From positions 1 to 41,245 of the IMG/VR virus record IMGVR_UViG_3300033406_000399: a DNA stretch of 41,245 bases. One strand, given 5' to 3'. Positions 4,659 to 41,245 of the stretch are shown piece by piece (the stretch's first letter is position 1; the number at the start of each line of letters is the position of its first letter). A program made the translations under genes and the position numbers. The notes under the pieces are model-generated. The model worked only from the letters and a program-made list of their open reading frames with translations. It ran no database searches and was not told the DNA's origin. Origin of the DNA: a virus. Taxonomy: Duplodnaviria > Caudoviricetes.

Positions 4659-5555
4659 ATGTTCAAAAAAGCCGAGCGACGCAAAATAAAATTACGGTTG
4701 GCCTTATGTGGGCCTTCCGGTTCTGGTAAGACCTATAGCGCGTTAAAAATAGCAAATGGTATTGGCGGCAAGATTGCCTTACTTGACACCGAAAACGGTA
4801 GTGGTTCGCTTTACAGTCACCTTTGCGATTATGATACAGCCGAAATAGCTCCACCGTTCACCGTTGAAAAATACATAGCGACAATCAAAGAAGCAGAGGC
4901 GGCAGGTTATGATGTACTGATAATTGACAGCTTGACACATGCTTGGGCTGGGCAGGGCGGTCTGTTGGAGGAAGTTGATAAGCGGCAAACTGGCAAGGCT
5001 AATTCTTTTGCCGCTTGGCGCGATGTAACGCCGATGCACAACAGATTAGTTGATACCATCCTGCAATCAAAGATGCACATTATCGTGACAATGCGGTCAA
5101 AGACAGCTTATGAGATTGAAACTGACGAACGTGGTAAAAAAGTACCAATAAAAAAAGGAATGGCTCCGATCCAGCGGGACGGACTAGAATATGAATTCAC
5201 GGTAGTCTTAGACCTGGACAATAAAAAACACGTTGCAGAGGCGGGAAAAGATCGTACAGGGCTATTTGACAGCAAGGTGTTTGTGCCAGATGAAAGTACC
5301 GGACAGCAGATTATGGAGTGGCTAGAGTCTGGAGCAGAGCCGCCAAAGCCGCGCATCACCGATATACAACGACGTAAGGTTTTTGCAATGAGTAAAGAGG
5401 CCGGAATTAAGCCGGACGAAATGAAAGACCATATCCATACTTCCTACAATGTGGAAAGCAGTAACGATATAACAGCCGATCAAGCGCAAGAGTTAATTGA
5501 ATGGCTTGATAAGCGGATTGTTGAACGGCAAGAACAACAAGAAGCAGCACAGTAA
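4659..5555 (+). CDS. Sak4/AAA_24-type P-loop ATPase (phage recombination protein)
   Basis: Walker A GPSGSGKT, LDTENGS, IIDSLTHAW, QRDGLEYEF. Confidence 0.85.
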   Translation: MFKKAERRKIKLRLALCGPSGSGKTYSALKIANGIGGKIALLDTENGSGSLYSHLCDYDTAEIAPPFTVEKYIATIKEAEAAGYDVLIIDSLTHAWAGQGGLLEEVDKRQTGKANSFAAWRDVTPMHNRLVDTILQSKMHIIVTMRSKTAYEIETDERGKKVPIKKGMAPIQRDGLEYEFTVVLDLDNKKHVAEAGKDRTGLFDSKVFVPDESTGQQIMEWLESGAEPPKPRITDIQRRKVFAMSKEAGIKPDEMKDHIHTSYNVESSNDITADQAQELIEWLDKRIVERQEQQEAAQ

Positions 5556-13025: not shown

Positions 13026-13074
13026 ATAAGGGGCGGCTGAATAAGCTGCCCTACACGTGTGGGGAGGGGCAAAT

Positions 13075-13422
13075 ATGAAAAGCTGTATAGCAAGTGATAG
13101 TTACGAAGGGGTATTTGTGTACTATCAGGATGAGATAGAACGCGATGAAGCGTTAGAATATGCAAAAGATGAAATCAAAGATTGGGAGGAAAAGGGCAAG
13201 AGGCTGGAGAGTGTTAGCCTTAGTTTAGATAATGAGGATGTTGTAATTACAGCAAGAGAATGGTCACATATACGGCGTATAAGGCGCATCACCGGCTACT
13301 TGAGCGAGGTAACAAATTTCAACGATGCCAAACGCGCTGAGCTGAGCGACCGGACAAACAATGATAATCAAGAGTACAATTATCCGAGTGACAGAGAAAG
13401 ATATTTAAATAAAATGCTTTGA
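13075..13422 (+). CDS. small protein with NrdD-like C-terminal glycyl-radical motif
   Basis: RIRRITGYLS....FNDAKRAELSDR. Confidence 0.75.
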   Translation: MKSCIASDSYEGVFVYYQDEIERDEALEYAKDEIKDWEEKGKRLESVSLSLDNEDVVITAREWSHIRRIRRITGYLSEVTNFNDAKRAELSDRTNNDNQEYNYPSDRERYLNKML

Positions 13423-27902: not shown

Positions 27903-30900
27903 ATGGGAGCATGGGACTATATAACTGGTGCGTTTGATAGTGCTGAAAATGTCGTAAAAAAGGGTCTTGATTATTTATCTAGTGGTTATTCTCAGAAGGC
28001 ATTTGAAGATACCAATTATGCTAATCATGTTATGGGCTATAGAGAGGCTACTCCGGAGCAGGAACAGGCATTAACGGAAGTGCAAACAGGCGAAAATCCT
28101 GATGCTAATTATTATTATGCACCACCTGAAACAATTGACGAAAAAATTGATAGGTGGATGAAAAATGACCAGGATTCATTTGTAAACAATGTAAAAGAAG
28201 CTGCAAGTCATACTATGAGTTATTTGGAGCAAAACCCATATGCGGCAATTACCGGGGAAAGAGTTCCGTCAAACCCGCAAACAGCAGTTAATACATTAAA
28301 GATAGTGCATGACTTTGCTGTGGGTGCGAGACAAAGTTATGGCGAATTGCAAAGAACTACAGACGATCTGGATAAAGTTGCATATCATGATGATGAGACA
28401 GGGACATATATACCTAAAACCGGATATACACAAAATGACGTAGACTTTGCCGTTAAACAGCGTAATCAGGCGCTTAAAACATTTCGTTATGAAACTATTT
28501 ATCGGGTAATTCCTCCGGCTGGAATATTCGAGAACGCAATGGATTCTTACTCATCAGGAGGACTAGGCAAAGTTGGGCGCGACTTAACATACGGTCCATT
28601 GGTTGATATAATGTCTGATCCTGATTTTCAGCAAAAATTTAATGAAAACCCCGAAGCAATGAACGCTAATGTTCTAATGGCAGGATCACAGCTAATTCCT
28701 TTGGCTGGAGTATTAGGCGGCACATTTAGCAAAGGAAAAAGATATTTTTCAATGAAAACAGCCAAAGAAGTAGGCAAAGAAACCGCTGAAAAAGAAGTAA
28801 CCCCAGGAGCTATGAGTAGTGAAGCACCTGCTGCTACTGCCACTGCTTCTATGTCAGACGCAGATATTTCGGCAAGTATTGATAGGTGGCAACGTGACCA
28901 TGATAATCCTACTCAGAATAATACATCTGCTCAACCGGGCACAGTCGATGCAGATATTCAAGACGCGTCTGCACAATACGGCGTATCACCTGCTTTAATA
29001 AGGTCTGTTATAAAGGCCGAATCTAGTTTTAACCCGGATGCAAAGTCACCTGTAGGTGCTATTGGATATATGCAGTTAATGCCGGAAACAGCGGAGGGGC
29101 TTGGTGTTGATCCGCATAACCCAAGGCAAAACATTATGGGTGGAACTAAATACCTTCGTCAGCTTTTAGATGAGTTTGACGGTGATACTGAGAAAGCGCT
29201 CGCAGCATATAACGCTGGACCAGAAGCAGTAAAAAAATATGGTGGGATACCGCCGTATAAGGAAACGCAAGCTTATGTAAGCAAGATAATGGATGACCTA
29301 AAAAATGAATCCGAAGAACGGCCTAGAATGGCAGAAAATGGCGAAGCTAATGTAAACGTATCTAACGAAGAAGAAACAGGCTCACGAGCCGCTACAGAAG
29401 ATCAGGAGTCAATTGAGTATAATAAGCCACTAACGAGTGAAGAGAAAGCGGTGGGAAAAACTCTAGGCGAAGAAAAAGCGGCAGAAATTCAAGAAGAAGG
29501 AATAAGTGAAGGGAAAACGCCAGAAAAATTTGCATTGTACGATGAAGAAAAGGATGCTGCAATAGAAAAAGAATTAAACGAAGCGATTCAAAGCGGCAAA
29601 CATCTTACCAATGATGATATAAAGGCCATTGTAAATAAGCATTATACTTCGGATATCCCTGATAATGTACAGGCCGCACTAGGAACGCCTTCGACTAAAA
29701 ATGGAACAGGTAGTGCTAAGCCAGTAACACGTGCAGAGATTAATAAGACTGTTAATGACTTGGTTACTTCCAGAACTGGCAGAATCGGCTTTGCCGGGGC
29801 AAAAGGAATATTTAAGGTTGATAAAGATGTTATCCGGTCAAGAAACTTCGGCGACTTCGATACGCAAGCACACGAGGTTGGGCATTATTTGGATAAGCAA
29901 TTAAAAATATCCGGTCATGATAGTGAATTAATTTCTGCCGCTGATAATATTTGGGGAGGCAATAAGATTTATGATAAATATACACCGGAACAGCGTAGAG
30001 CCGAAGGAATTGCCGAATTTACTCGCCAGTATCTAACCGATCCGGCGAAAGCAAAACAAAACTTCCCTGGATATTACAACGATTTTGTTGATAAGCTTGG
30101 CCAAAACAAAGATTTAGCTGTAAAAGTTCAAGATATTGGCGATAAAATGCAAAGGTGGTTTAACCAATCACCAGAAGCCAGAGGACGCGGCGGTGTGTCA
30201 TTCGGCAATGATACAGGGATATTCGATACAATAAAAGATAAGGCTACAAACGCTGCATATAAAGCATATGAGGCGTTTTTTGATGACAAGGTGGATCTGG
30301 CGCGGCAGTCGGCAGCTATCGAAAAACAAATAGGCCAAGAATTAAAGTATGAAAAAAATCCATATAAAAAGGCGCGGATGGTTCAAACGTCCGCGCTTGC
30401 GAGGGCCGAAATGCTAGTTTGGGATGATAACCCAACTTTAGTACGAGACACTCTTAATAAGATATATAATAATAAACTTCGTTATGATGTCACGATGAAA
30501 GAAATATTCAATGGTCTTGACAAAAAAAATCTAGATGGAAAATATCCTGGTTACCTGCAAAACGGTAACTTTAAAAATTGGCATGAAGCACTCAGCACTT
30601 TATTGACAGCCAAAAAGCAATTAGAAAATTATAAGGTTAAAACTTTAGATGTAAGAGCAGAGTATCAAAAAGCCTACAATATAGCAAGACAAGAATTATT
30701 CAATGCTAAAGCCAATCTTGATAATGTTAGAAAGAACAAACATAATAGTTATACTCAACATCGTTTTGCTGTGCTTAAAGCAGAAGAAATTGTTGATGAA
30801 GCAACGACCAAATTTAAGCAAGCTGAGGATGCGTTGAAAAAAGCCAATAGTACAGAGTACAAAGGGCCAATGTCAAATGCTGATGCAGAAACTATTGTTA

Positions 30901-32843
30901 AAAACGCTCCAAAAGAGTTAGATGATTTAACCGAAAAAGTATACCAATACAGCGACAACCTATTAAGTATAGCTCAGGAGTGCGGCCTAATTAGTCAAAA
31001 GACAGTTGACGCATTGCACCAAAAATATAAGAACTATGTTCCAATGAGCAGAGAGTTTTCTGACGAGGCTGCAATGGAAAATACCTTTGCTACAGGTAAG
31101 AAGATTGGCAATGTATCTAATCCGCTGAAAAAGTTGACGGATGAGGGATCAACGCGAAATGTTATTGACCCGCTTGAAAACCTTATTAAAAATACTTACA
31201 CATTATTAAGCGCAGCAGAACGAAATAAGGTAGCACAAACCTTTGTTGCTTTGAGTAAGGAAAGTGGATTAGGTGAATTTGCCGAAGCTGTTTCTGGTGG
31301 TTCTGGCGATGCTAAATCCAGTATATTTACAGTAATGGTAGACGGTAAAAAGCAGGCTTTTCAAACTACTCCAGAGTTTTACCGAGCGATAATGAGCATG
31401 AATCAAGCATCAGCAAATATGTTAATTAGTATCTTTAAGCCATTTGCACAAGCGTTAAGAGTTGGGGCTACGATTTCGCCTGACTTTGTAGTTAGAAATC
31501 TTATTCGCGACACGTTAACGGCTGGTATTTACTCCGAAACAGGTTTTAAACCAGTTCTTGATACTGCAAAAGGCGTTTTATCACTTGTTAAAGATAAAGA
31601 ATTAGCTTATGAATTTAAAGCTTCTGGCGCTCCACTATCGGCCTTTGTTGGTCTTGATCGCAAAGGTGTAAATAGAATGATTGATGAAGCGGTTAACGGC
31701 AAGAACTGGGAGAACCCATTAACATATATAAGGGCGGGATATGATGGACTTAGGGAAGTATCTGAGGCGGCAGAATCAGGAACAAGGATAAGAGAATTCG
31801 AACGTGCCAGACAGCAAGGGAAGAGTATTGATGAGGCTGGACTACTTGCTAAGAATGTAACGCTTGATTTTAGCCGCGCTGGAACACTTACGCGGCAGAT
31901 TAATCAGGTAATACCTTTTTTCAATGCGGCATTACAGGGTGGAGATAGGTTTATAAGGGGAATGATTAATAACCCTAAACGAGCAATACCACTTGCATTG
32001 ATGTATATAACATTGCCAAGTATTGTTACATGGCTTATGAATCATGACAAGGATTGGTATAAAGAACTATCTGACGATATAAAGAACGGATGTTGGCTGC
32101 TTGAACACAATGGGACAATTATTCGTGTTCCGAAACCGTTCGAACCGGGAATATTCTTTGGTTCTGCTGTAGAAAGGGCATTAGATAAAGCATACGGTGA
32201 AGACCCAAAAGCAGTGGAGAAATGGGTATCATATGCAGCACAAGGTTTTGCACCTAATGTTATTCCTACACTTGTAGGTCCAATAATTGAGTGGATGACT
32301 AATTACAGTTTCTTTACTGGTAAATCTGTAGTGGGCAAGAAAGAACAACGTTTACCTGATGAATACCAATTCAATGACTATACTTCAGAAGCAGCTAAGA
32401 AATTAGGAAGAGCAACTGGATTATCTCCTGAAAAAATTGATAATACGATAAATGGTTATTTAGGCAGTGCAGGTAAATTCTTTGTTGGGTTAGGTGATAC
32501 GTTCATAGGCGACAAAAAAGAAATGCCCGCGAAAAACTGGAACGAGATTCCAGGAGTTCGTGGGCTTACTTATACATCGTTTAAAAATTCTAACTCTGTT
32601 AATGAGTTTTACGAAAAACTTGATGAAATGGAAAAGAACCATGCTGCTACGGGTAAAAAAGGTATAGTACCAGCAGACTTAAAGAAATTCCGTACTGCTG
32701 AACAGACTATAAAGGATTTGCATAAAGAAAATAGAGGTATTACAAGCAACGTCAATTTATCGGCAGAGCAAAAACGGCAAAAGATTGATACTAACAACGC
32801 TAAAATATTACAACTAGCTAAGAAGGCACTGGGGAAAAATTAA
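27903..32843 (+). CDS. large ejection/polyvalent protein with SLT transglycosylase, HExxH motif and LPD38-like C-terminus
   Basis: AESSFNP.A.S..GA.G.MQLMP.TA, ALAAYNAGP; AHEVGH; DFSRAG..IPFFNA..QG; PKPFE.G; N.SFF.G. Confidence 0.9.
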   Translation: MGAWDYITGAFDSAENVVKKGLDYLSSGYSQKAFEDTNYANHVMGYREATPEQEQALTEVQTGENPDANYYYAPPETIDEKIDRWMKNDQDSFVNNVKEAASHTMSYLEQNPYAAITGERVPSNPQTAVNTLKIVHDFAVGARQSYGELQRTTDDLDKVAYHDDETGTYIPKTGYTQNDVDFAVKQRNQALKTFRYETIYRVIPPAGIFENAMDSYSSGGLGKVGRDLTYGPLVDIMSDPDFQQKFNENPEAMNANVLMAGSQLIPLAGVLGGTFSKGKRYFSMKTAKEVGKETAEKEVTPGAMSSEAPAATATASMSDADISASIDRWQRDHDNPTQNNTSAQPGTVDADIQDASAQYGVSPALIRSVIKAESSFNPDAKSPVGAIGYMQLMPETAEGLGVDPHNPRQNIMGGTKYLRQLLDEFDGDTEKALAAYNAGPEAVKKYGGIPPYKETQAYVSKIMDDLKNESEERPRMAENGEANVNVSNEEETGSRAATEDQESIEYNKPLTSEEKAVGKTLGEEKAAEIQEEGISEGKTPEKFALYDEEKDAAIEKELNEAIQSGKHLTNDDIKAIVNKHYTSDIPDNVQAALGTPSTKNGTGSAKPVTRAEINKTVNDLVTSRTGRIGFAGAKGIFKVDKDVIRSRNFGDFDTQAHEVGHYLDKQLKISGHDSELISAADNIWGGNKIYDKYTPEQRRAEGIAEFTRQYLTDPAKAKQNFPGYYNDFVDKLGQNKDLAVKVQDIGDKMQRWFNQSPEARGRGGVSFGNDTGIFDTIKDKATNAAYKAYEAFFDDKVDLARQSAAIEKQIGQELKYEKNPYKKARMVQTSALARAEMLVWDDNPTLVRDTLNKIYNNKLRYDVTMKEIFNGLDKKNLDGKYPGYLQNGNFKNWHEALSTLLTAKKQLENYKVKTLDVRAEYQKAYNIARQELFNAKANLDNVRKNKHNSYTQHRFAVLKAEEIVDEATTKFKQAEDALKKANSTEYKGPMSNADAETIVKNAPKELDDLTEKVYQYSDNLLSIAQECGLISQKTVDALHQKYKNYVPMSREFSDEAAMENTFATGKKIGNVSNPLKKLTDEGSTRNVIDPLENLIKNTYTLLSAAERNKVAQTFVALSKESGLGEFAEAVSGGSGDAKSSIFTVMVDGKKQAFQTTPEFYRAIMSMNQASANMLISIFKPFAQALRVGATISPDFVVRNLIRDTLTAGIYSETGFKPVLDTAKGVLSLVKDKELAYEFKASGAPLSAFVGLDRKGVNRMIDEAVNGKNWENPLTYIRAGYDGLREVSEAAESGTRIREFERARQQGKSIDEAGLLAKNVTLDFSRAGTLTRQINQVIPFFNAALQGGDRFIRGMINNPKRAIPLALMYITLPSIVTWLMNHDKDWYKELSDDIKNGCWLLEHNGTIIRVPKPFEPGIFFGSAVERALDKAYGEDPKAVEKWVSYAAQGFAPNVIPTLVGPIIEWMTNYSFFTGKSVVGKKEQRLPDEYQFNDYTSEAAKKLGRATGLSPEKIDNTINGYLGSAGKFFVGLGDTFIGDKKEMPAKNWNEIPGVRGLTYTSFKNSNSVNEFYEKLDEMEKNHAATGKKGIVPADLKKFRTAEQTIKDLHKENRGITSNVNLSAEQKRQKIDTNNAKILQLAKKALGKN

Positions 32844-37326: not shown

Positions 37327-37884
37327 ATGCGAGTAGTATGTGACCCTGGTCATGCTGGGCGTACTGTTGACCCCGGCGCGATAAATCAAAATTCTGGTTT
37401 GCAGGAGGCTGACATTGCCCTGGTGGTTAGCAGACTGGTTAAACAATACTTAGAAGCGGCTGGCTGTGAAGTTAAACTGACCCGTGACGCGTGGGAAGAT
37501 CCCAAAACTGATGAATTAAGTTATCGAACATCTGTAGCCAACGAGTGGGGCACAGATGTTTTTGTTTCACTGCACTGTAATTCAGCAATCAGCGAAGAGG
37601 CAAAGGGCTTTGAGGTATGGACTTCGCCAGGGCAAACCGATGGCGACAATTTAGCTGGCTACATTTATAGCCAAATTCGTAACACCTTTCCTGATCGGCA
37701 AGGGCGCGGATTAAGAGAGGCTAATTTTTATGTATTAACTCATACTAACGCCCCGGCCTGTCTGGTGGAAATGGCGTTTATCAGTAATGACGAAGAGGCA
37801 CAGCTATTGTCTACGCCATCATGGCAGGAACAAATGGCGAGGGCAATTGCTAGGGGCGTGACCGATTATGCAAGCAGAGTTTAA
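37327..37884 (+). CDS. N-acetylmuramoyl-L-alanine amidase (Amidase_3) endolysin
   Basis: DPGHAG..DPGA, E, FVSLHCN, LVEMAFISN; catalytic domain only. Confidence 0.95.
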   Translation: MRVVCDPGHAGRTVDPGAINQNSGLQEADIALVVSRLVKQYLEAAGCEVKLTRDAWEDPKTDELSYRTSVANEWGTDVFVSLHCNSAISEEAKGFEVWTSPGQTDGDNLAGYIYSQIRNTFPDRQGRGLREANFYVLTHTNAPACLVEMAFISNDEEAQLLSTPSWQEQMARAIARGVTDYASRV

Positions 37885-37960
37885 TAAGCAAAGTATTTGG
37901 CCACTGTTATCAAAACAGATGGCTATTTATTTTAATAAAATTAAAGGAGTGTGTTCATTT

Positions 37961-38500
37961 ATGTCTGATGAAACCACAGTAACGACAACCGAGGAAACCA
38001 CTGCCACGGAGGCAACCGATACCACAGAAGCGACTGAAACTGCTACTGAAACTACTGCAACCGATACAACTACAACGGAGGAAACGACTGATACTACTAC
38101 CGATGCTGATACTACAACGGAAACTGAATCAACAGATGATTCAACTGATACTTCTACCGATTCAACTACCGATAGTTCTACTGATTCAACCGAAACCACG
38201 ACCACAACCGATACTACAACCGAGGAGGAATCTACTGTGTCTGATATTACTGATACCGCTACCGAGGCCGCAGAAGCCGCCGTTATTACGAGTATAGTAA
38301 CCACTACTACATCTACTACCACGGATATTGCTGATAGTATTACAGCAAAAGTAAAGGAGCTTACTGCTGAAATCTCTACTACAAAGAGTCTTTGGGTTAA
38401 GACTCGTAATTCTATTGAAATAGCGGCTATGACTGGTGCATTGGCTGGCCTTGTCGCCGGGTTAAAGGAAGGTTTAGAAGATTTAAAAGACAAGATTTAA
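37961..38500 (+). CDS. Thr/Glu/Asp low-complexity protein with hydrophobic C-terminal helix
   Basis: AAGGAG RBS before MSDETT; terminator follows. Confidence 0.75.
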   Translation: MSDETTVTTTEETTATEATDTTEATETATETTATDTTTTEETTDTTTDADTTTETESTDDSTDTSTDSTTDSSTDSTETTTTTDTTTEEESTVSDITDTATEAAEAAVITSIVTTTTSTTTDIADSITAKVKELTAEISTTKSLWVKTRNSIEIAAMTGALAGLVAGLKEGLEDLKDKI

Positions 38501-38533: not shown

Positions 38534-38560
38534 CTATATATGGGGAGGTGCATATATATA

Positions 38561-39022
38561 ATGAAGGTAAATGTTTTATTCTCATATCCAGAAACGGTAT
38601 TTGGTCGCATAATCGATGCCGTTGAAGGCCCAGGAGCAGACCCAAGCCACGCCGCTATATTTATGCTTGATGGAATTTTAGAGGCATTAGACAACGGTTT
38701 TGTTAAGTCACCACTTACCGCCTATGATGGTCACAAGACGACTATTATCACTGTCGATGTGCCTGACATAGACGATGCAGAACTAGAAGCAAAGCGGCTT
38801 TTGAATACACCTTATGGCTGGATTGATTGTATAAATGGTGGATTGCGTGAAATTACAGGCCAGCAGATTCCCGGCGATGGTGAGGTAACAGTAAACTGTT
38901 CTGAGGCTGTGGCGCGGATACTGAGGGCTGGGGGCTTAGATGTATTGCCGGGGGTATATGCTGACGGGATTACTCCTGCGGCATTGTTAGATGCTTTACA
39001 GCCGTTGGCGGTGGCAGCATGA
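38561..39022 (+). CDS. permuted papain-like NlpC/P60 (YiiX/YaeF-type) enzyme
   Basis: SHAAI precedes PY and NCSE; ITP..L at the end. Confidence 0.8.
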   Translation: MKVNVLFSYPETVFGRIIDAVEGPGADPSHAAIFMLDGILEALDNGFVKSPLTAYDGHKTTIITVDVPDIDDAELEAKRLLNTPYGWIDCINGGLREITGQQIPGDGEVTVNCSEAVARILRAGGLDVLPGVYADGITPAALLDALQPLAVAA

Positions 39023-39161
39023 AGATTTCAATTCCTGACTTCAAATTTACGATAAAAATACCTTGGCTGTCGAAGTGGTTGTTTGACAGAAAAGTTAAAG
39101 GGAAATAGCATCGCAGAATAGAATATCGTAATTTAACATTATATTTCTGCGGCGGTGGGCT

Positions 39162-39362
39162 ATGCTAAAAAATAAACTAAAAAGTTTTCGACATAAATAT
39201 GAAATGAATCAACTAGAATTTGCTGCTTTTCTTGGCGTTAACAAATCGCTGTACAACAGGTGGGAACGGCAACAGGGGCAACCAAATAGTGTGTCGATGA
39301 TTAAATTAGCTAAAAAACTAGGGTGTAAAATAGATGACCTCTTCGAAGAAGTTCCGGATTAA
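39162..39362 (+). CDS. XRE-family HTH regulator
   Basis: KNKLK..R....MNQ.EFA..LGV....Y.RWE....QP....IKLAKKL. Confidence 0.9.
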   Translation: MLKNKLKSFRHKYEMNQLEFAAFLGVNKSLYNRWERQQGQPNSVSMIKLAKKLGCKIDDLFEEVPD

Positions 39363-39377
39363 TCTCCGGGACTTTTT
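39349..39377 (+). terminator. intrinsic terminator
   Basis: AGTTCCGGA/TCCGGGACT stem followed by T tract. Confidence 0.7.
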
Positions 39378-39382
39378 ATTTA

Positions 39383-39435
39383 TATAAATATACGCAAGAC
39401 AGGCAATTTATGCCGTATATGTGCGTATATTTATA
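39383..39435. repeat. 14-bp perfect inverted repeat upstream of the FtsK-like gene
   Basis: TATAAATATACGCA (39383-39396) / TGCGTATATTTATA (39422-39435). Confidence 0.9.
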
Positions 39436-39460
39436 AAAACTGGAAGGAGGTGTACATACG

Positions 39461-40672
39461 TTGAATATACTAACCGAAATAAAAAACGATATACGGGCCG
39501 TTATTATGCCTATGCTTGGCAGGGATATTCCCCTTGCTGTAATTGAAACTATAGAAGCGTTGTGGGCCGAAGAAAAACGGCCACAGATACATGCGAAGAA
39601 AAGAACGTCAACCGGATATACGTTTACTATTGCGCTGCCGCCAGGAATTAGCTTTAAGGACTTTTACAGTAAATTAGATTATTTTAAGGATTCTGCTGGC
39701 GGCAATAAGGTTAATACTTCAATTGTGCAAGCTGGCAAAATGGCTGTTTTGCAGATAAGCACTAATCTATTAGGCAATTATTTTGAGTATCCCCGTGACT
39801 ATCCGCTAAAAGGCATTTTGCCGGTGCCGATCGGCTACAGTACAAACGGGTTACAGGTAATCGACATTGCTACTTTGCCACATCTGCTAGTTGGTGGCAC
39901 AACCGGCGCGGGGAAAAGTAATGCTATACATGTGATAGTCAATTCACTACTGAGATTGCCAGAGCCACCACTAATAATTTTGATTGATTTAAAAATGTCG
40001 GAATACAACTACTTAGAAAATCAGGTATTGCTCGTCACCGACATTGATACGGCGTGTCAAGCATTGGCGAGACTTGTCCAGGAAATGCGGCAACGACAAC
40101 TACTATTAAAAAAATCTCGTTGCGTTGATATAAAAAAATATAATCGGCACAGCAAAATGCAGTACATAGTTCTGGTGATTGACGAACTGGCCGAATTAAA
40201 GGATAAAGATGCCCAGGAAGATTTAGAAACATTGCTCCGCTTGTGCCGAGCGTCAGGCATTTGCATTGTTGCAGCTACTCAGCGTCCATCATCAAAAATA
40301 TTCCTGTCTAAGTCTTTCGGTGATGCAAAGGCGAACTTTTCCGGGCGGCTATGCTATCAGACAATATCAGATGTTGACAGCCGGATTATCCTAGATTCGG
40401 GCGAAGGTGCAACATTGCCAGCTATTCCAGGCCGCGCATATTTGCGGATCGGCAGAGAGATTACCGAAATACAAACGCCATATTTGGACCCGGAGGAGGT
40501 GCAATATGTCGATAAATTTCCGGCGGCAGGGTTACCAACGGAACTCCCGACTAATCGAGACGTTGAAGGAATGGGGAGTGCTGGACACTCAGCAAATACA
40601 GGTGCTAATATTTCCATCGTCGCGAGTCACCCAGCGAAGGCTGAGGGCTTTGACAGAAAGCGGACGGATTAA
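39461..40672 (+). CDS. FtsK/SpoIIIE-family ATPase
   Basis: PHLLVGGTTGAGKS, LIDLK, VLVIDELAEL, RASGI..VAATQRP, SRIILD..GA..L...GRA. Confidence 0.92.
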   Translation: MNILTEIKNDIRAVIMPMLGRDIPLAVIETIEALWAEEKRPQIHAKKRTSTGYTFTIALPPGISFKDFYSKLDYFKDSAGGNKVNTSIVQAGKMAVLQISTNLLGNYFEYPRDYPLKGILPVPIGYSTNGLQVIDIATLPHLLVGGTTGAGKSNAIHVIVNSLLRLPEPPLIILIDLKMSEYNYLENQVLLVTDIDTACQALARLVQEMRQRQLLLKKSRCVDIKKYNRHSKMQYIVLVIDELAELKDKDAQEDLETLLRLCRASGICIVAATQRPSSKIFLSKSFGDAKANFSGRLCYQTISDVDSRIILDSGEGATLPAIPGRAYLRIGREITEIQTPYLDPEEVQYVDKFPAAGLPTELPTNRDVEGMGSAGHSANTGANISIVASHPAKAEGFDRKRTD

Positions 40673-40964
40673 ACGAAGCACTCAGACCTTGCCATATTTC
40701 TACTACATTGAGCCAGTAGCTAATCCCCTGCGGCGTATAGCAATAAACTGGGCTAGACTATGGCTTTTGAAACAATCAAAAAGCTGGGAGCGTATAACAA
40801 TTGATTATCAAACTAGCACTTGTACGGTCGCTAATACTATCACCGGCGTGGAAAGACAAATTTATATAGTCGAGAGAGGTTTTAAATTACCGGGTGATAA
40901 TGTGCTGGTTATTAGCGATGACGCGGTAAATAATTGGCGGGAGGCAGTATTATGCGAAAAATAG
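40506..40964 (+). CDS. replication-relaxation (Replic_Relax)-like winged-helix protein
   Basis: GGAGGAGG RBS; R...I..L...GVLDT.QI..L.F....R..QRRL..L...G.IKR...PY.YY; adjacent to FtsK. Confidence 0.65.
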   Translation: MSINFRRQGYQRNSRLIETLKEWGVLDTQQIQVLIFPSSRVTQRRLRALTESGRIKRSTQTLPYFYYIEPVANPLRRIAINWARLWLLKQSKSWERITIDYQTSTCTVANTITGVERQIYIVERGFKLPGDNVLVISDDAVNNWREAVLCEK

Positions 40965-41245
40965 TAGGACTGTTCGCTTGGTGTATTCCATCCGTCAGTC
41001 ATGCCGCCGGTTTACAGGATTTAATTACCGGGGCAAGCCCTGACGCAAAATACTATGTCTATGGTGTGCTTGCTATATTTGCGGTGTGCATTGTTGGCAA
41101 GGCTGGCGGGTTGATCTTATCAGGTTTTGGTGATGGCCGTGGTGGACGGTTAATGAGCAATGGTAGTTACTTGGCAGCAATCGGGATATTTATGTCTTTG
41201 GCACTTATGCTGTTTAAACAGTTTTGCACGATGGTCGTTGGATAG
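40952..41245 (+). CDS. signal peptide plus two-TM membrane protein
   Basis: GGGAGG RBS; VSHA|A cleavage-like site; two hydrophobic helices. Confidence 0.75.
   Translation: MRKIVGLFAWCIPSVSHAAGLQDLITGASPDAKYYVYGVLAIFAVCIVGKAGGLILSGFGDGRGGRLMSNGSYLAAIGIFMSLALMLFKQFCTMVVG

Follow-up and report, generated by a model that had tools for sequence, protein, structure and literature searches.

The right end of a prophage from an apparent spore-former of the Negativicutes carries a conserved module in which an FtsK/SpoIIIE-family ATPase is paired with a relative of the MobC-type relaxases. This relaxase-like protein has lost the nuclease motif of its relatives and is under purifying selection. The pump genes (FtsK, relaxase-like, and membrane protein) seem to have a promoter of their own that resembles promoters of the host's mother-cell genes, and in the host's class, the module was found only in genomes with the sporulation gene spoIVA. 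We tentatively propose that the module encodes a pump that works in the mother cell and delivers double-stranded, non-integrated phage DNA to the forespore without nicking it; as a whole, we place this proposal slightly on the doubtful side of an even balance.

A conserved module at the right end of a prophage

The stretch of DNA that we analyzed (the window) covers positions 1 to 41,245 of IMG/VR record IMGVR_UViG_3300033406_000399 and is G000:C68:173077-214321 in a host genome of 4.5 Mb. It encodes a podovirus-like phage with terminase, head, short-tail, internal virion, replication, and lysis genes, including the phage's own initiator/loader and DnaB helicase. We scanned 35 ORFs from the window with PHROGs, and the named matches were to replication, regulation, head, tail, lysis, and FtsK families. 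None of these 35 ORFs matched a mating-pore or conjugation family, so there is no sign among them that the module is part of a larger ICE.

Exact direct repeats of at least 13 bp did not reveal an att site. Instead, we derived an 8-bp core from a PG-binding/ykuD-like host gene that is split by the prophage at this core. This puts attL at 171216 and attR at 214709 in the genome, for a prophage of 43,493 bp. The attR core (4710-4717 of locus L001) is past the right end of the window, and a large serine recombinase is outside the window on the left. Because attL and attR were placed from the split gene, we can say that all four genes of the module are within the prophage and that attR is about 390 bp away. 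Whether the module is inside the prophage was a point that a previous sequence-only reading of this DNA had raised for checking.

The host carries spoIVA, spoIID, spoIIIA, spoIIID, gpr, SASP, and spoIIAA. Since the closest named match of the FtsK protein is from a Negativicutes bacterium (58%), we infer that the host is a spore-forming member of the Negativicutes.

The sequence-only reading had grouped a helix-turn-helix (HTH) regulator, FtsK, a relaxase-like protein, and a small membrane protein into a single module. All four ORFs are present on the plus strand (Table 1) and the gene set is conserved, but a terminator-like hairpin parts the HTH gene from the other three genes, which we call the pump operon. 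By itself the hairpin is weak evidence, as our search found 2 such sites where 1.9 were expected. A T-tract follows the HTH gene in most modules.

Table 1. Genes and predicted signals of the module (feature, position in the window, strand, remarks)
P1, sigma-H-like promoter AGG(G)A-N17/18-GAAT	39097..39127	+	upstream of the HTH gene
Sigma-70-like site	39083-39111		overlaps P1
XRE/HTH_3 regulator, 66 aa	39162..39362	+	HTH_3, E 9e-10
Terminator-like hairpin	39346..39377	+	between the HTH gene and the pump operon
P2, predicted promoter region	39395..39433	+	SpoIIID-like box 39395-39404; sigma-E-type -35 39403-39410; -10 39424-39433
FtsK/SpoIIIE-family ATPase, 403 aa	39461..40672	+	PF01580, 75 bits, above the cut-off
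Replic_Relax (MobC-type) homolog, 152 aa	40506..40964	+	likeliest start ATG 40506
Small membrane protein, 97 aa	40952..41245	+	signal-like N-terminus and TM hairpin

We counted a locus as a relative if it encoded an FtsK of the module type (score above 200) followed by a relaxase-like gene. This left out weaker FtsK matches without the relaxase (L115 and L117-L167), two contigs that end at or near FtsK (L021 and L083), L051 (score 191, used as an outgroup only), L087 (labeled as Ca. Omnitrophica, with no ORF called), and the weak matches L088-L091. We found 52 loci, or 44 modules after dereplication at 90%. An adjacent two-TM ORF is present in 37/44 modules, and 29/44 have an XRE-HTH gene within 4.5 kb upstream. 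Some modules have additional genes: a TM-M23 fusion (9/44, with both catalytic motifs in 8 of these) or an actin-like (partition) ATPase (5/44). Given 52 loci with FtsK and the relaxase-like gene, and a two-TM ORF in 37 of 44 modules, the gene set is a conserved unit and not a chance association. Both the gene order and the promoters are retained across unrelated phages.

A relaxase relative without a nuclease motif

The relaxase-like gene does overlap the FtsK gene, as the sequence-only reading stated, but its likeness to Replic_Relax is partial: only positions 3-66 of the 191 positions of PF13814 match, with a score below the cut-off, and the nuclease residues are lost. A full-length relative (P0028) exceeds the PF13814 cut-off. 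Full-length relatives have about 210-235 amino acids and retain the pattern H..(R)PD..ExD. In the protein from the window, the PD and E positions are deleted, and the PD-(D/E)xK-type motif (H..PD..ExD) is absent.

The nuclease motif is intact in 31/44 modules and lost in 12/44; in the remaining module (L116), the protein is truncated. In a quick tree of the FtsK proteins, with L116 left out, a single branch (SH-aLRT 95) separates the 12 motif-less modules from the others. Because they group in this way, a single old loss would be the simplest reading, and repeated independent losses are unsupported.

Across six close copies of the relaxase-like gene, considering the part outside of the FtsK overlap, the median pN was 0.27, as compared to a saturated pS of 0.80. 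For all three pump genes, pN ranged from 0.16-0.27 versus a saturated pS of about 0.8. By this measure, the nuclease-dead protein is under purifying selection and is not decaying. Its AF2 model has a pLDDT of 94, with a winged-helix fold at residues 1-70 (VIA Z 8-10); the C-terminal part was barely covered in the fold comparison. In RefSeq, the relaxase is labeled as "replication initiation protein." The missing nuclease motif argues against nicking and against the transfer of single-stranded DNA, and it says that nicking is probably dispensable in the nuclease-dead branch.

The ATPase and the small membrane protein

Across 41 aligned relatives of the FtsK protein, the invariant residues include G146, G151, and K152 of Walker A, D241 and E242 of Walker B, Q274, and G324/R325. 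The RecA-fold motor is thus present with its Walker A/B and Q motifs, and residues past about 350 form a variable tail, which overlaps the relaxase-like gene. We saw no hydrophobic segment by inspection of the sequence, and no gamma-domain family from Pfam matched, which bears out the previous description of an intact-motif ATPase with neither a TM anchor nor a gamma domain. The closest chains in PDB are 6o1w-6o1z, described as "DNA translocase coupling protein" (E 5e-55), and then FtsK (2e-45). We take the FtsK-like coupling protein in 6o1w-6o1z to be TcpA from pCW3. The ATPase is predicted to be a translocase, or pump, for double-stranded DNA.

The sequence-only reading considered the 97-aa protein to be a two-TM protein with a signal peptide, similar to SpoIIIAC and, in topology, to VirB2 pilins. 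The model does contain a helical hairpin, but the signal-like leader is missing in several relatives. The likeness to SpoIIIAC is weak and yet detectable: a profile built from 16 members aligns to the host's SpoIIIAC/AD with a probability of 56% (hhalign, E 1e-4, 51 columns), and the copy from L014 matches a host-built HMM (E 1e-4). Among the weak matches to Pfam, PF06686 is the commonest (3/16 members, E ≥ 0.11), and TIGR02848 matches 1/16 members. These weak matches are suggestive of a SpoIIIAC/AD-like protein. On the other hand, none of the 16 members matched the VirB2/TrbC pilin family (PF04956) at E ≤ 1, and the likeness to pilins is unsupported. With Foldseek, the relaxase-like model had no match at E ≤ 0.001, and the model of the membrane protein (pTM 0.41) matched generic hairpins alone.

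A predicted sigma-E-type promoter for the pump operon

Using an unseeded, two-block Gibbs search of 26 post-HTH regions, we identified a motif, P2, with the pattern GGACAnGCA(A/T)(A/T)TT-N13/14-(C)ATAnnTA. It scored 450, as compared to 312-336 in 5 mononucleotide-shuffled sets, although this contrast is overstated because fewer restarts were used for the shuffled sets and because the sequences are kin. With a matrix that excluded 7 loci (including both copies from the window's own genome), the site in the window ranked 1st in the 4.5-Mb genome and the site of a second module ranked 2nd. Beneath these two sites, the genome-wide scan showed no clean enrichment of sporulation genes.

We built a second matrix from 22 module sites and scored the 200 nt upstream of host genes in 5 genomes, relative to 400 background regions. 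For sigma-E genes, the mean percentiles were 98 (spoIIIAA), 99 (spoIIID), 96 (spoIVA), and 49 (spoIID), versus 48 (gpr), 52 (SASP), and 58 (spoIIAA) for sigma-F, -G, or -H genes; the orthologs from the 5 genomes share kinship and are not independent. The sigma factors are assigned to these genes as in B. subtilis and C. difficile. P2 resembles the promoters of 3/4 host sigma-E genes, with spoIID as the exception. The 5 genomes yielded neither spoVG nor dpaA as controls, and the comparison is without a sigma-K gene. Sigma-E and sigma-K have a common -10 element and different -35 elements, according to the text of PMC3789822.

The 5' block of P2 matches the SpoIIID consensus with at most one mismatch in 12 of the 26 sites that we aligned (chance expectation of 0.7% per site). 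In B. subtilis this consensus is WWRRACARNY. The SpoIIID box of C. difficile, given as KRTAACARK in the text of PMC5025042, has an ACAR core in common with the B. subtilis consensus.

Ahead of the HTH gene, 16/26 modules have a pattern (P1) for which the search was seeded with the sigma-H consensus. With the P1 matrix, the sole host gene to score was spoIIAA, at the 98th percentile. spoIIAA is described as a sigma-H gene in the text of PMC7438776.

P2 did not score in four modules from Bacillus or Geobacillus phages (11-55 of 60 shuffles scored as high). Among held-out clostridial modules, just 4/15 reached at least 10 bits with the P2 matrix, and another 3 were of insufficient length; in clostridial modules, the promoter may sit further upstream. 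Overall, we predict that P2 is a conserved sigma-E-type promoter with a SpoIIID-like box that belongs to the pump operon itself, and the pump operon is quite probably expressed in the mother cell.

Distribution of the module

We found the module's FtsK in 6 of 401 genomes from the host's class, one of which is G000. Each of the 6 belongs to the 64 spoIVA-positive genomes, whereas the 337 spoIVA-negative genomes yielded no match; the class genomes share kinship, so the counts are not independent. This agrees with a restriction to spore-formers, which the sequence-only reading had raised. A broad profile for the relaxase matched 5/301 class genomes, all within the same 6 FtsK-positive genomes. 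At the phylum level, 13/401 genomes match, and the 7 strong matches besides the host's own are all spoIVA-positive, but this says little because 325/401 of these genomes are spoIVA-positive. Three weak phylum-level matches that we examined are in other gene contexts, and one match (G582) is not among the spoIVA-positive rows listed. The 14 strong named matches of FtsK have Bacillota labels, except for one from Ca. Omnitrophica. The Bacillus-type relaxase is found in 26 phage records: 23 are from the Bacillus group, and 3 are labeled with non-sporulating hosts (Staphylococcus or Stenotrophomonas). The B. subtilis phages phi18-2 and 268TH007 are among the carriers of the operon.

Relation to known systems

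By its gene content and sequence, the module is a member of the phage "DNA translocation operon" (FtsK with a MobC-type Replic_Relax protein) that was named by Pathria et al. in 2012 (PMC3357382). The members given in the text of that paper are 0305phi8-36 (orf200/201/203/207), SPO1, GBSV1, and Gamma/Wbeta. The same text relates the relaxase family to MobC of CloDF13, reports that plaque growth was unaffected by the deletion of a related operon, and proposes a role in biofilms; "sporulat" does not occur in its main text. The operon of Pathria et al. and ours both have a TM-less FtsK/coupling ATPase that adjoins a MobC-type relaxase with an N-terminal HTH, and both have separate membrane proteins and are within a phage genome, beside an integrase or att site. 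In contrast, the module in the window has a nuclease-dead relaxase, a spore-former of the Negativicutes type as its host, and a predicted sigma-E-type promoter with a SpoIIID-like box.

The same four kinds of genes follow the lysis module in the B. pumilus phages Novomoskovsk and Bolokhovo (TrbC/VirB2, Replic_Relax, FtsK, and RHH; text of PMC9658697). This cluster is grouped with the FtsK genes of BtCS33, phiCM3, and Pony. The clusters from Bacillus phages have been interpreted in print as systems for plasmid replication/segregation or for DNA injection. The B. pumilus cluster has TrbC/VirB2, whereas our module has no VirB2 match. Also, in four Bacillus-type phages, the TM gene lies on the upstream side, the HTH gene (annotated in 2/4) is divergent, and P2 did not score.

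The ATPase and the relaxase scaffold, with its N-terminal winged HTH, are homologous to the MOB_C pairs (MobC-MobB of CloDF13, and the coupling protein of 6o1w-6o1z). Unlike those pairs, the clade of the window lacks the catalytic residues, a mating pore (among the ORFs scanned), and a plasmid match. The motor motifs are shared with SpoIIIE/FtsK and with TraB from Streptomyces, and the functions of anchor, motor, and winged-helix DNA reader may be shared as well. In FtsK/SpoIIIE, an N-terminal TM domain and a C-terminal gamma winged helix are on one chain; both are absent from the phage FtsK. Instead, the phage system is split over three genes, and its winged helix comes from a relaxase.

A link between phage FtsK proteins and sporulation was already guessed in print (texts of PMC3359378 and PMC4113786). 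In the literature within reach of our search, which most subscription papers, figures, and supplements were beyond, neither the sigma-E/SpoIIID promoter nor the nuclease-dead branch is reported. What is new here is the nuclease-dead branch, the sigma-E-type promoter with its SpoIIID-like box, and the spoIVA-linked distribution in the host's class.

A possible DNA pump into the forespore, and the alternatives

We propose that P1 would drive the HTH gene at the entry into sporulation, and that P2 would drive the FtsK, relaxase-like, and TM genes in the mother cell once the polar septum has formed. Together, the three products would function as a SpoIIIE that is split among them. Anchoring in the membrane would fall to the TM hairpin, possibly docked at the SpoIIIA complex through its likeness to SpoIIIAC, and the winged helix would be a substitute DNA-recognition domain that binds phage DNA without nicking it. 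The ATPase would export DNA from the cell in which it is synthesized. SpoIIIE reportedly does this as well: Sharp and Pogliano are said to have found that it exports DNA out of the cell that makes it. A phage genome that is infecting the mother cell, or was excised in it, could thereby escape the cell's lysis as a spore-entrapped genome. Because a lysogen's forespore receives the prophage anyway as part of the chromosome, as described for SPbeta in the text of PMC4191935, any gain from the pump would be restricted to non-integrated (infecting or excised) copies.

Because the catalytic residues are lost and the promoter is like those of the host's mother-cell genes, we think that the pump may well push phage DNA from the doomed mother cell into the spore. 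If the timing in the mother cell is correct, then we lean somewhat towards delivery to the forespore. The M23 fusions and the partition ATPases of some modules also count in favor of the spore pump, as does the intact plaque growth after the deletion of a related operon (text of PMC3357382). Several observations speak against the spore pump: in structure, a coupling protein and not FtsK is closest, 31/44 relatives have the nuclease motif, spoIID is at the 49th percentile, the copies from Bacillus phages are without P2, the match to SpoIIIAC has a probability of just 56%, and non-sporulating hosts are given for 3/26 phage records that have the Bacillus-type relaxase. A more specific scenario is that sigma-E and SpoIIID control a split SpoIIIE in which a SpoIIIAC mimic docks on or beside SpoIIIA-SpoIIQ, a former relaxase loads the DNA, and pumping occurs after the septum forms. 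We consider this detailed version to be possible but doubtful. If true, it would explain at the molecular level how viruses become entrapped, it would mean that a conjugation module was turned into a developmental DNA pump, and it would bear on the persistence of phages and their dispersal together with spores. The operon is widespread in phages and has been known since at least 2012, and the promoter would name the cell, the time, and two host regulators. The scenario would also bear on how the genomes of lytic or non-integrated phages enter spores ("virospores" in the text of PMC12991052).

The sequence-only reading had proposed the transfer of phage DNA either into the spore or between cells. 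The predicted sigma-E-type promoter favors the spore, while transfer between cells is weakened for the window's clade because its relaxase lacks the nuclease motif. Still, the mother cell might export excised phage DNA to neighboring cells without virions, either as double-stranded DNA, as with TraB, or, for relatives with an intact nuclease, by MOB_C mobilization via the pore of a co-resident conjugation system. In favor of this, the best structural match is to a coupling protein, the family is kin to MobC of CloDF13 (text of PMC3357382), most modules have the intact motif, some encode M23 peptidases with both catalytic motifs, and streptococcal IMEs are listed with these families in part of the literature. 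But the clade of the window is conserved despite its missing nicking residues, the window ORFs that we scanned include no mating-pore families, and a family member with the intact motif had no match among 72,556 plasmids. Also, no module turned up in the non-sporulating relatives from the class, where conjugation would not be expected to be missing. Overall, we consider export to neighbors to be unlikely. It is slightly less likely still that the module manipulates sporulation instead of moving phage DNA, with the SpoIIIAC-like protein and the ATPase jamming or remodeling the SpoIIIA-SpoIIQ channel, or competing with SpoIIIE, so as to delay spores until lysis ends. This would fit with the match of P2 to host promoters, the spoIVA-linked distribution, the likeness to SpoIIIAC, and the presence of other sporulation genes in phages (text of PMC10294663). 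However, a dominant-negative protein would not need Walker and Q motifs that are invariant in 41 divergent copies, nor a conserved DNA-binding winged helix, and a resident prophage would seem to gain little from blocking its host's spores.

Plasmid-like maintenance was proposed for the B. pumilus phages (text of PMC9658697), and the module might replicate or partition the phage genome as a circle, either in pseudolysogeny or once it has been excised in the mother cell. The actin-like ATPases and the RefSeq name of the relaxase could be explained in this way. We find it improbable, as the phage has its own initiator/loader and helicase, a nuclease-dead protein would be unable to start rolling-circle replication, and ordinary partition does not need a membrane-anchored pump under a mother-cell-type promoter. 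Finally, the truncated, motif-less relaxase, and the stops or frameshifts in some copies (L017 among them), raise the question of whether the module is a decaying remnant of a mobilizable element that has no function now. The low pN relative to pS in all three pump genes largely refutes this, and the promoters and the gene order are kept across unrelated phages, so we consider a remnant to be very improbable.

The insertion site

The prophage is reminiscent of skin and SPbeta, which also combine a large serine recombinase, insertion into a putative mother-cell gene, and sigma-E/SpoIIID-type control of genes of the element; no DNA pump is reported for these elements in the texts of PMC4191935 and PMC5025042. 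Unlike the targets of skin and SPbeta, the ykuD-like gene could not be restored: relative to 4 relatives, it has an additional 59-nt deletion, because of which excision would leave it broken. We therefore rejected the idea that the purpose of the element is to restore a host gene by excision. Just right of the end of the window (4435-4638 of L001), there is a 67-aa ORF, which we considered as a potential recombination directionality factor and set aside because it also adjoins tyrosine integrases. This ORF is present in 5/44 modules.

A second copy of the module in the host genome

Another prophage-like region of the host genome bears the same module (on contig C20). Both of the promoters, the sigma-H-like P1 and the sigma-E-type P2, are present there too, and the FtsK encoded by this second module shares 48% identity with the one from the window. 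The phrog_1128 ORF that precedes the window's module has a near-identical counterpart in the C20 prophage, and an acidic, Thr-rich ORF is also common to the two prophages.

Features of the window, its flanks, and related loci
Feature	Location	Details
Second module	G000:C20:169125-171500 (L025)	HTH, small RHH-like ORF, FtsK, degenerate relaxase, two TM ORFs
160-aa ORF	window 38540-39022	phrog_1128 (E 1e-6); directly 5' of module
Acidic Thr-rich ORF	window 37868-38500	3' of endolysin
67-aa ORF	L001 4435-4638	no family; between TM gene and attR, just past window end
Split host gene	L001 4700-5260 (minus) and L002 13110-13224	PG-binding protein; C-terminal domain presumably L,D-transpeptidase (ykuD-like)
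Putative HipA-like kinase ORF	L002 12310-13152	opposite strand; overlaps 3' half of split gene
Ku-like genes, as judged from sequence	L013 4022-4834; L017 3970-4776	a short way 5' of modules
Module-bearing element	G052:C1, about 2.58 Mb (L027)	actin-like ORF, RHH-like ORF, serine-recombinase-like gene
Small ORF	window 13057-13422	RRITGYL motif
Virion-like protein	window 27903-32843	1646 aa; SLT and LPD38 domains

The insertion site

The prophage interrupts a host ykuD-like gene between the His and Cys motifs, and the 5' half of this gene also has a 59-nt deletion. Upstream of the gene is a sigma-K-like promoter, AC...CATATAAT.

Variation among the modules

The 67-aa ORF was found in 5 of the 44 dereplicated modules, all from the branch that lacks the relaxase nuclease motif. 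In some modules, all of them from the intact-nuclease branch, the second TM protein also contains an M23 peptidase that has catalytic motifs (L057, L078, L079, L096, L097, L101, L103, L104, and L108). The architecture of these fusions resembles that of SpoIIQ.

The L027 element immediately adjoins putative sigG and spoIIR genes (labeled by eye).

Within the window, the RRITGYL motif of the small ORF resembles the C-terminus of anaerobic ribonucleotide reductase; this ORF had no PHROG match at 1e-8.
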